A program made the position numbers and the translations under genes. A stretch of 64,000 nucleotides of DNA, from the NCBI RefSeq assembly GCF_045037415.1, contig NZ_CP173438.1, one strand, 5' to 3'. The notes beneath the pieces are model-generated. The model saw only the letters and a program-made list of their open reading frames with translations, made no database searches and had not been told where the DNA came from. Shown in pieces: positions 60,554 to 61,183 of this stretch. Position 1 is the first letter of the stretch; every line of letters begins with the position of its first letter. Origin of the DNA: Escherichia coli (GTDB lineage: Bacteria > Pseudomonadota > Gammaproteobacteria > Enterobacterales > Enterobacteriaceae).

Positions 60554-60599
60554 ATACAGCGAACGCCATTGGTTTAGTTGGATATTTACTGTGCCGGAC

Positions 60600-60811
60600 A
60601 AAAACGGTTTGCGGGGAAATCTTAGTTAAGTAGAATAACTGCGGGTGCTTGAGGCTATCTGTCTCAGGCATGAACACCAAAAGGCAGATAGAGAAAAGCC
60701 CCAGTTAACATTACGCGTCCTGCAAGACGCTTAACATTAATCTGAGGCCATATCTATGCGACACATAGAGATTAGCCTCTTACGGACCGAAAGGTCAAGG
60801 AGAAGCAGGCT
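60600..60811. promoter_or_regulatory. hok leader region: short mok-like upstream ORF and expected antisense (sok-like) RNA region
   Basis: A 19-codon ORF starting near 60756 ends in a TGA overlapping the hok ATG (CTATGAAG), the coupling arrangement typical of hok/mok/sok loci; no sok promoter was mapped. Confidence 0.35.
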
Positions 60812-60967
60812 ATGAAGCAGCAAAAGGCGATGTTAATCGCCCTGATCGTCATCTGTTTAACCGTCATAGTGACGGCACTGGTAACGAGGAAAGACCTCTG
60901 CGAGGTACGAATCCGAACCGGCCAGACGGAGGTCGCTGTCTTCACAGCTTACGAACCTGAGGAGTAA
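60812..60967 (+). CDS. hok: Hok/Gef-family type I toxin
   Basis: 51-aa product MKQQKAMLIALIVICLTVIVTALVTRKDLCEVRIRTGQTEVAVFTAYEPEE has the Hok-family TM helix and conserved C...C region; below the 60-aa cutoff of the ORF track. Confidence 0.8.
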   Translation: MKQQKAMLIALIVICLTVIVTALVTRKDLCEVRIRTGQTEVAVFTAYEPEE

Positions 60968-61183
60968 AGAACCCGGCGAGGGATAAATCCCTCGCCACCT
61001 CTGATGTGGCAGGCATCCTCAACGCACCCGCACTTAACCCGCTTCGGCGGGTTTTTGTTTTTATTTTCAACGCGTTTGAAGTTCTGGACGGTGCCGGAAT
61101 AGAATCAAAAATACTTAAGTAGCGCGCAGGGATAAGAGGGATGGTCCCTTAAAGGGGAGAGCTAATTATCCGGAAGGATTCTG

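Follow-up and report, generated by a model that had tools for sequence, protein, structure and literature searches.

A 64,000-nucleotide (nt) stretch of Escherichia coli DNA (NCBI RefSeq assembly GCF_045037415.1, contig NZ_CP173438.1), referred to here as the window and numbered from its first letter, carries near its right end a hok gene preceded by a short leader reading frame, the start of which is overlain by a putative antisense RNA gene. An earlier reading made from the letters alone (the sequence-only reading) had proposed a hok-type type I toxin locus at this place, and the protein, the leader, the Sok promoter and the RNA fold elements all support that proposal. With a probability of about 0.9, we read the locus as an intact type I toxin-antitoxin module (hok/mok/sok) that belongs to the hokD/hokW subtype, is situated in the early-right region of a lambdoid prophage and is known here from sequence and prediction. 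Its coding parts are as follows.

60812 to 60967, plus strand: hok (hokD) open reading frame (ORF), 51 amino acids (aa)
60798 to 60802, plus strand: hok Shine-Dalgarno sequence (SD) AGGAG, read from the sequence, 9 nt 5' of the hok ATG; also the left breakpoint of K-12-type truncated copies
60756 to 60815, plus strand: mok-like leader ORF of 19 codons, MRHIEISLLRTERSRRSRL, from the sequence and the comparison of loci
60744 to 60747, plus strand: mok SD GAGG, read from the sequence, 8 nt 5' of the mok ATG

The translation of the hok ORF is exactly the 51-codon Hok/Gef-family toxin quoted in the sequence-only reading, and by RefSeq comparison it is 100% identical to E. coli HokD (WP_000813254.1). 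It matches the whole of the Pfam HOK_GEF profile (PF01848, positions 1-42 of 42; E=1.2e-23, 82.9 bits against a cutoff of 22) and PHROG 251, “MokW-like host killing” (E=2.8e-33); it matches the Hok subfamily models of NCBIfam as well, though below their curated cutoffs (48.5 vs 73 bits). Disabling mutations relative to functional Hok proteins were looked for and none were found, the protein being identical to HokD, which serves as a toxic positive control in a recent preprint surveying Hok proteins (10.1101/2025.08.07.668861). The gene had been described as missed by the ORF track; this is correct in that it falls below the 60-aa cutoff of that first stage, but the coding sequence (CDS) is already annotated as hokD in RefSeq, where mok, Sok and the RNA switches carry no annotation. 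The locus is ordinary: thousands of genomes already carry the annotation, its family has long been known, and as a complete member whose CDS is already named hokD it offers nothing new in itself.

At the Tyr47 codon of hok there is a TACG motif (60950-60953; context GCTTACGAA) that resembles the TadA-edited anticodon loop of tRNA-Arg and is invariant in the 68 loci introduced below. According to the same preprint the hokD mRNA, like that of hokB, is subject to adenosine-to-inosine (A-to-I) editing that changes Tyr to Cys for a disulfide, and in the Hok protein of plasmid R1 the substitution Y48N causes loss of function (PMC9841398). A-to-I editing at the Tyr47 codon would yield Y47C.

The mok-like ORF runs from an ATG at 60756 to a TGA (60813-60815) that shares bases with the hok ATG, as ATGA, just as had been noticed of a short ORF whose stop overlaps the start of hok. 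At the sequence level this is a mok leader with its own SD that reads through to the hok translation initiation region. It was absent from the program-made ORF list because its 19 codons lie under the 20-aa minimum of that list. The mok gene of R1 also has 19 codons upstream of hok, and there mok translation is required only up to the hok SD, truncation of mok at the hok start being tolerated (PMC9841398). Since R1 needs mok to be translated only that far, the 19-codon mok of the window is fully compatible with coupling, and the sequence together with R1 genetics suggests that mok and hok would be translationally coupled in the window copy.

For comparison, a scan of viral contigs yielded 80 loci, all with an identical HokD; the comparison set comprised 85 related loci, with 68 distinct full-length loci. 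The mok SD (GAGGC) and the mok ATG show no variation in the 68 distinct loci, whereas the phase of mok relative to hok takes three values. The spacing of the two start codons, mok ATG to hok ATG, is 57 nt in 55 of the 85 loci, where mok is in frame and gives a 70-aa extended Hok (phage 933W, as annotated, among them); it is 56 nt in 19 loci, the window included, where mok has 19 codons and stops on the hok ATG; and it is 58 nt in four loci, where a 68-aa Mok is read in the third frame (phage Rac, as annotated, among them). Two things combine to set the phase: which allele (24 nt or 26 nt) a variable patch around the mok ATG has, and whether the sok -35 region reads GGTCAAGG or GGCAAGG, which differ by one base. 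Three mok phases with the same Hok make a tidy natural experiment in support of the view that translation through mok matters and the Mok product does not, a view already reached by R1 genetics.

The hok transcript and its regulatory segments can be laid out as follows.

60608 to 60636, plus strand: candidate hok promoter, read from the sequence (-35 TTTGCG at 60608-60613, 17-nt spacer, -10 TAGAAT at 60631-60636)
60643 to 61062, plus strand: hok mRNA in full length (about 420 nt), starting at the 5' end of tac and ending in the T-run of the terminator (placed by the Rfam start, the terminator and the fold)
60643 to 60654, plus strand: tac (translational activator element), GGGTGCTTGAGG, with three possible pairing partners: fbi, ucb and the segment directly downstream; invariant in the 68 distinct loci
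60645 to 60671, plus strand: metastable 5' hairpin of the nascent transcript (60645-60655 with 60661-60671)
60696 to 60702, plus strand: ucb or anti-SD box, AAGCCCC, partner of the mok SD in the closed form, of tac in the open form
60775 to 60779, plus strand: dcb, GCCTC, pairing with the mok SD in the open form; invariant, and overlapping the spacer of the sok promoter on the other strand
60975 to 60996, plus strand: G+C-rich 3' hairpin seen in the folds, the expected end protector of the processed mRNA (a role suggested by R1)
61017 to 61029, plus strand: fbi (fold-back inhibitory element), CCTCAACGCACCC, the complement of tac apart from one bulged C
61036 to 61066, plus strand: intrinsic terminator from a terminator scan, a stem-loop (61036-61053) followed by a T-run (TTTGTTTTTATTT)

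The Rfam scan proposed with the sequence-only reading gave a match to RF01794 (“sok”) at 60643-60814, scoring 106.7 bits where the gathering threshold is 59 (E=3e-23, model positions 1-157). This match begins with GGGUGCUUGAGG and ends on the hok AUG; because it lies on the plus strand, the model describes the leader of the hok mRNA, and Sok is encoded on the opposite strand within it. The transcription start of hok is placed near 60643, and the promoter is probably of weak-to-moderate strength. Of 46 distinct upstream flanks about 90% retain its -10 hexamer (TAGAAT), even when unrelated sequence lies beyond it. At the other end, the GC-rich hairpin and T-run that had been noticed at about 61040-61065 were resolved by the terminator scan into a hairpin at 61036-61053 and the T-run after it. 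Similarity to other loci stops at 61054-61062, and the boundaries of the module coincide with promoter and terminator.

The 420-nt hok RNA has a minimum free energy (MFE) of -168 kcal/mol (z=-7.1 against shuffles), with its 5' and 3' ends paired. In this MFE structure tac and fbi (60643-60654 with 61017-61029) form a helix of 12 base pairs (bp), which is paired in 99.5% of cells across the 68 loci; the only changes are from G-C to G-U, and with tac invariant there is no double compensatory change. The full-length fold also holds the closed form of the leader, a helix between 60698-60708 and 60737-60748 in which GCCCC (60698-60702) pairs with the SD GAGGC (60743-60747). The first 30 nt of the mRNA form an 11-bp hairpin of -16.9 kcal/mol, in agreement with the R1 model (PMC9841398). 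Folds of mRNA positions 1-140 and 1-172 give the open form, that is, a tac/ucb stem plus a GAGGC...GCCUC hairpin presenting the mok start, and this open form of the isolated 5' domain is the consensus structure of RF01794. The 3' hairpin at 60975-60996 is paired in 99.5% of cells across loci, with alternation of G-U, A-U and G-C at one pair. Of the conserved hok mRNA fold elements looked for, tac/fbi, ucb/SD, SD/dcb and the metastable 5' hairpin are all present.

Other signals in the transcript were set aside. A further helix of the fold (helix 8, the mok start region with 60999-61008) is paired in 80.6% of cells and disrupted in most alleles of the patch, and is not claimed as an element. Rfam hits to ceN48 in the leader and rsmX in the 3' untranslated region (24 bits each) lie far below the gathering scores and are taken as chance resemblance of one hairpin-plus-terminator structure to another, and an apparent minus-strand terminator (60997-60974) is the hok 3' hairpin read backwards. 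An isrK-like match at 60976-61057 on the plus strand (27.4 bits vs 50; E=0.001 in a 1.1-kb search) is probably a resemblance of two hairpins. A genuine isrK lies 8 kb from it in the same prophage.

On the opposite strand lie the following.

60769 to 60798, minus strand: sok promoter, -35 TTGACC (60798-60793), 18-nt spacer, -10 TAATCT (60774-60769), homologous to that of sokW
60694 to 60762, minus strand: predicted Sok antisense RNA, about 69 nt, with ends transferred by alignment from the annotated sokW of phage 933W

An antisense promoter opposite the mok region had been left to be located by the sequence-only reading; it was found as TTGACC-18-TAATCT on the minus strand, where it aligns with the sokW promoter. 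When Takada et al. changed the sokW -10 from TAACCT to GAGCCG, antitoxin activity was lost (PMC8621323; primers YO-421/422). The ends of Sok probably lie at 60762 and 60694 of the minus strand, and the predicted RNA begins with a single-stranded 5' tail (about 13 nt), which is followed by a single long stem-loop and then a U-run; its fold has an energy of -29.8 kcal/mol (z=-4.4). Such a molecule would be a cis-antisense Sok of classical shape, with its own promoter and covering the mok start.

The organisation is that of hok/sok (parB) of plasmid R1: both systems encode a Hok/Gef toxin behind a mok leader whose start is covered by a cis-antisense Sok, both have the switches tac/fbi, ucb and dcb, and in both there are a metastable 5' hairpin and a protective one at the 3' end. 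In R1 the closed mRNA is inert, with a tac/fbi stem and the mok SD sequestered by ucb, while the 3'-processed mRNA, with tac/ucb and SD/dcb pairing, is translatable and binds Sok; a metastable 5' hairpin in the nascent chain and a protective 3' stem-loop are also present there (PMC9841398). The two systems differ in that R1 hok/sok is plasmid-borne with a proven role in post-segregational killing, its Mok has 70 aa and overlaps nearly all of hok out of frame, whereas the window mok stops at the hok ATG, and its hok -10 is TATGAT where the window has TAGAAT. The R1 sequences are distant, HokW and Hok being 44% identical.

From these likenesses the following course of events can be proposed. A promoter with the -10 TAGAAT would make a hok mRNA of about 420 nt, as sequence and conservation suggest, and in the nascent chain tac is predicted to be held in the metastable hairpin. 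In the full-length RNA the tac/fbi and ucb/mok SD pairings, predicted here and demonstrated for R1, would leave the mRNA neither translated nor bound by Sok. Slow 3' trimming to the hairpin at 60975-60996, as in R1, would then remove fbi, upon which tac would pair with ucb and the mok SD would enter the SD/dcb hairpin, as the folds of the isolated 5' domain predict. By translating the 19-codon mok, ribosomes would reach the hok SD and start and permit hok translation, consistent with R1 genetics. Going by R1 and hokW-sokW, the 5' tail of the unstable Sok would pair with the mok start region, block mok and trigger cleavage of the duplex by RNase III. Should sok transcription stop, the stable mRNA pool would yield HokD, a small inner-membrane toxin that would depolarise and kill the cell; in a prophage, candidate triggers are prophage induction, loss of the element and shut-off of host transcription by an infecting phage. 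By analogy, then, the window copy would encode a HokD that kills through the membrane and is neutralised by Sok.

The hokW-mokW-sokW locus of 933W and Sakai Sp5 is 89.4% identical to the window at the nucleotide level over 443 nt, and shares with it tac, ucb, SD, dcb, fbi, the layout of the sok promoter and carriage by a lambdoid prophage. It is shown by experiment to be a toxin-antitoxin system of type I, in which HokW is toxic, sokW rescues and the sok -10 has been defined (PMC8621323). Several differences separate the two. The C-terminus is …FVDYESEK in HokW and …FTAYEPEE in the window; mokW shares the frame of hokW and, as annotated, yields an extended product of 70 aa, whereas the window mok has 19 codons and stops at the hok ATG; and the Sok-target patch of 933W is a different allele. 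The 933W hokW locus keeps fbi and is without the terminator hairpin of the window and most loci, diverging right after GCACCCGC (positions 1930-1966 of the 933W locus, L003, against window 61030-61062 in the locus alignment). It also lies at the right end of its phage on the other strand, whereas the window copy lies in the replication-to-Q region.

A second instructive comparison is with hokD (relF) of the K-12 Qin prophage, which has the same protein (WP_000813254.1), hok SD, 3' untranslated region, fbi and terminator as the window, and the same downstream neighbours: rem, then ydfU and a Q-like antiterminator. Copies of the K-12 type match the window only from 60798 on, the promoter, tac, ucb, mok and sok being replaced by relBE. 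Because its leader was replaced in this way, K-12 hokD is read as the third gene of a relBEF operon, with no antisense control. The window is a complete module of the ancestral type, unlike the K-12 hokD remnant, and the comparison shows that remnant as it was before relBE replaced its leader. Seven of the 85 loci are without the leader, five of them with the K-12 relE junction and two with another upstream replacement. Both types of replacement, although their upstream sequences are unrelated, start at the same point directly 5' of AGGAGAAGCAGGCTATG (window 60798), which may point to a recombination hotspot, or else to selection under which only the hok SD and CDS are kept.

Over 48554-64000 the window is 99.99% identical to an annotated lambdoid prophage of E. 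coli Ecol_AZ146, which bears out the prophage location given in the sequence-only reading. The genes of that prophage run in the order frameshifted integrase, exonuclease, dicB, Rha, CI/Cro-like regulators, YdaT, and DnaT-like and P-like replication proteins; several small ORFs, hokD, rem, DUF968, DUF1133 (Q-like), holin, lysozyme, terminase, portal and capsid follow. The hok module thus sits between the replication genes and rem/Q, in the same orientation as the early-right genes. The integrase frameshift in the Ecol_AZ146 annotation corresponds to about 48554-48933 of the window. Used as a 547-nt query, the locus matches 4937 of 5426 complete E. coli genomes, with a median of two places per genome and up to nine, and also 110 phage records, among them 933W, whose annotation names mokW, hokW and sokW. 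According to a recent survey, 9.3% of Escherichia phages carry hok, and the gene is four-fold enriched in prophages.

Several points weigh against an intact and working module. Both promoters were assigned by homology and conservation, and a consensus promoter scan called neither; it passed over them because one hexamer of each scores only 3/6 (the -35 of hok and the -10 of sok). The MFE structure of the whole 358-nt truncated RNA has another 5' pairing that lacks the tac/ucb stem, which only the isolated 5' domain gave. On the 68 distinct loci the full-length fold is paired in 96.1% of cells, with seven pairs showing double changes and most pairs invariant; because these loci are 94% identical and tac is invariant, support from covariation is weak, and the covariation test, compatible but weak, is not claimed as decisive proof of the long-range helices. 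Since its integrase is frameshifted, the prophage may be unable to excise, and an induction-linked role may be moot. Finally, the chromosomal hokA, hokB and hokC gave neither post-segregational killing nor rifampicin activation, according to work cited in the Hok preprint (10.1101/2025.08.07.668861).

These last observations, the promoters under the scan threshold and the loss of the leader from K-12 hokD would all suit a silent relic, that is, a locus whose elements look intact yet which is unexpressed or unable to kill, like the chromosomal hok loci of laboratory strains. We consider this very improbable: no regulatory element is missing and all are conserved, the protein matches toxic HokD exactly, a single chromosomal copy of R1 hok is lethal without Sok (PMC9841398), and the close homologue hokW-sokW is active from a prophage. 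The preferred reading is that the window prophage carries a complete, probably functional killer module of the hokD type. When this prophage is engineered or cured, deleting or interrupting the sok promoter region could be lethal.

Homology supports the regulatory mechanism well; for the role in the prophage there are several candidates. The sequence-only reading had named prophage stabilisation and phage exclusion, both of them extrapolations from plasmid R1. The only tested prophage homologue, hokW-sokW, instead aided lysis and phage release after induction (PMC8621323): mitomycin C removes sokW RNA, HokW appears in a RecA-dependent manner and deletion halves the phage yield (Takada 2021). 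A role of this kind in the window, with membrane damage after induction leading to earlier or fuller lysis and phage release, is a reasonable if tentative candidate. It is favoured by the 89.4% identity to hokW-sokW and by co-orientation with the early-right operon between the replication genes and Q, but it draws on a single study with a two-fold effect, hokW has another position in its phage (close to the right end, other strand), and the integrase of the window prophage is frameshifted.

Ranked about equal to it, if held with slightly more doubt, is addiction or stabilisation, in which loss of the prophage or of a segment would deplete the short-lived Sok and leave the stable hok mRNA to kill the cell. 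This is the classical function of R1 hok/sok, the mokW/hokW of 933W are annotated “prophage maintenance”, the window locus has the same delayed-activation mRNA architecture, and the module has sharp boundaries and a mosaic, mobile distribution among prophages. Against it, the chromosomal hok loci tested so far did not show post-segregational killing, and precise loss of an integrated prophage is rare. Phage exclusion, whereby a lytic phage would shut off sok transcription and HokD would kill the cell first (abortive infection), ranks lower and seems unlikely. R1 hok/sok on a high-copy plasmid reduced the plating efficiency of T4 by 42% and its plaque size by about 85%, according to Pecota & Wood (1996) as summarised by others; this effect is modest and seen at high copy number only, and hok genes are reported not to be enriched near defence systems.

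Apart from natural variation in the mok frame, the residual interest of the locus lies in the variable target of Sok, and otherwise there is little beyond annotation.

60748 to 60772, plus strand: hypervariable patch around the mok ATG, which makes up the loop of the SD/dcb hairpin and the inner part of its stem, and corresponds to the place where the Sok 5' tail would bind

This patch of about 25 nt has 18 alleles among the 68 distinct loci, each of which keeps the SD...dcb hairpin (-10 to -15 kcal/mol), and variability peaks within it while the mok ATG that it surrounds is invariant. The pairwise difference per site is 0.299 in the patch and 0.000 in the mok SD, against 0.017 at third positions of hok (about 17-fold), a coding baseline that is lowered because the loci were selected by identical Hok protein. 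Loci of the same genome carry different patch alleles in four of four genome groups, though random pairs differ 89% of the time. Since the patch encodes the 5' tail of Sok and is also what this tail is aimed at, its variation may reasonably be read as diversification of antisense specificity. It is conceivable, though rather doubtful, that the patch is under diversifying selection and that co-resident prophage hok/sok loci represent non-cross-reacting “specificity types”. If so, the module would be a prophage-specific addiction or competition device, somewhat like immunity types, and the drift of the mok frame would be a by-product, the Mok peptide being irrelevant. A literature search, which was not exhaustive, did not find this idea described.

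Just upstream of the hok module, in a stretch of 34% G+C, an ORF at 60374-60553 on the plus strand encodes a hydrophobic product (MKNALQFLFVAFWLF...) of 59 aa from the ATG at 60374, which is preceded by GGGGG; a longer form starts from a GTG at 60335. The ORF is intact in 15 other loci with 0-5 substitutions and falls in a gap unannotated in RefSeq, and searches of Pfam, NCBIfam and PHROGs with the longer, 72-aa form gave no match. Right after the hok terminator there is a promoter-like TTGAAG-18-TAGAAT at 61076-61105 (plus strand), about 80 nt 5' of rem (61184-61435), which may be the rem promoter.

Further away in the window, four tRNA genes (2575-2647, 4984-5056 and 46701-46773 on the minus strand, 6805-6877 on the plus strand) have equal Rfam scores of 72.6 bits. 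The copies at 2575-2647 and 4984-5056 have the same sequence, with the anticodon loop CU-GUU-AA of tRNA-Asn. The features of window 44000-64000 include ybtS (yersiniabactin) and two integrases, which suggests an asn-tRNA-linked island adjoining the prophage; the order of ybtS relative to the fourth tRNA is not given by the feature list. Close to dicB and Rha, in the early-left part of the prophage, Rfam places a cluster of small RNAs on the minus strand: C4 antisense RNA (52763-52850, 81.9 bits), isrK (52875-52951, 67.7 bits) and DicF (53185-53236, 71.5 bits).

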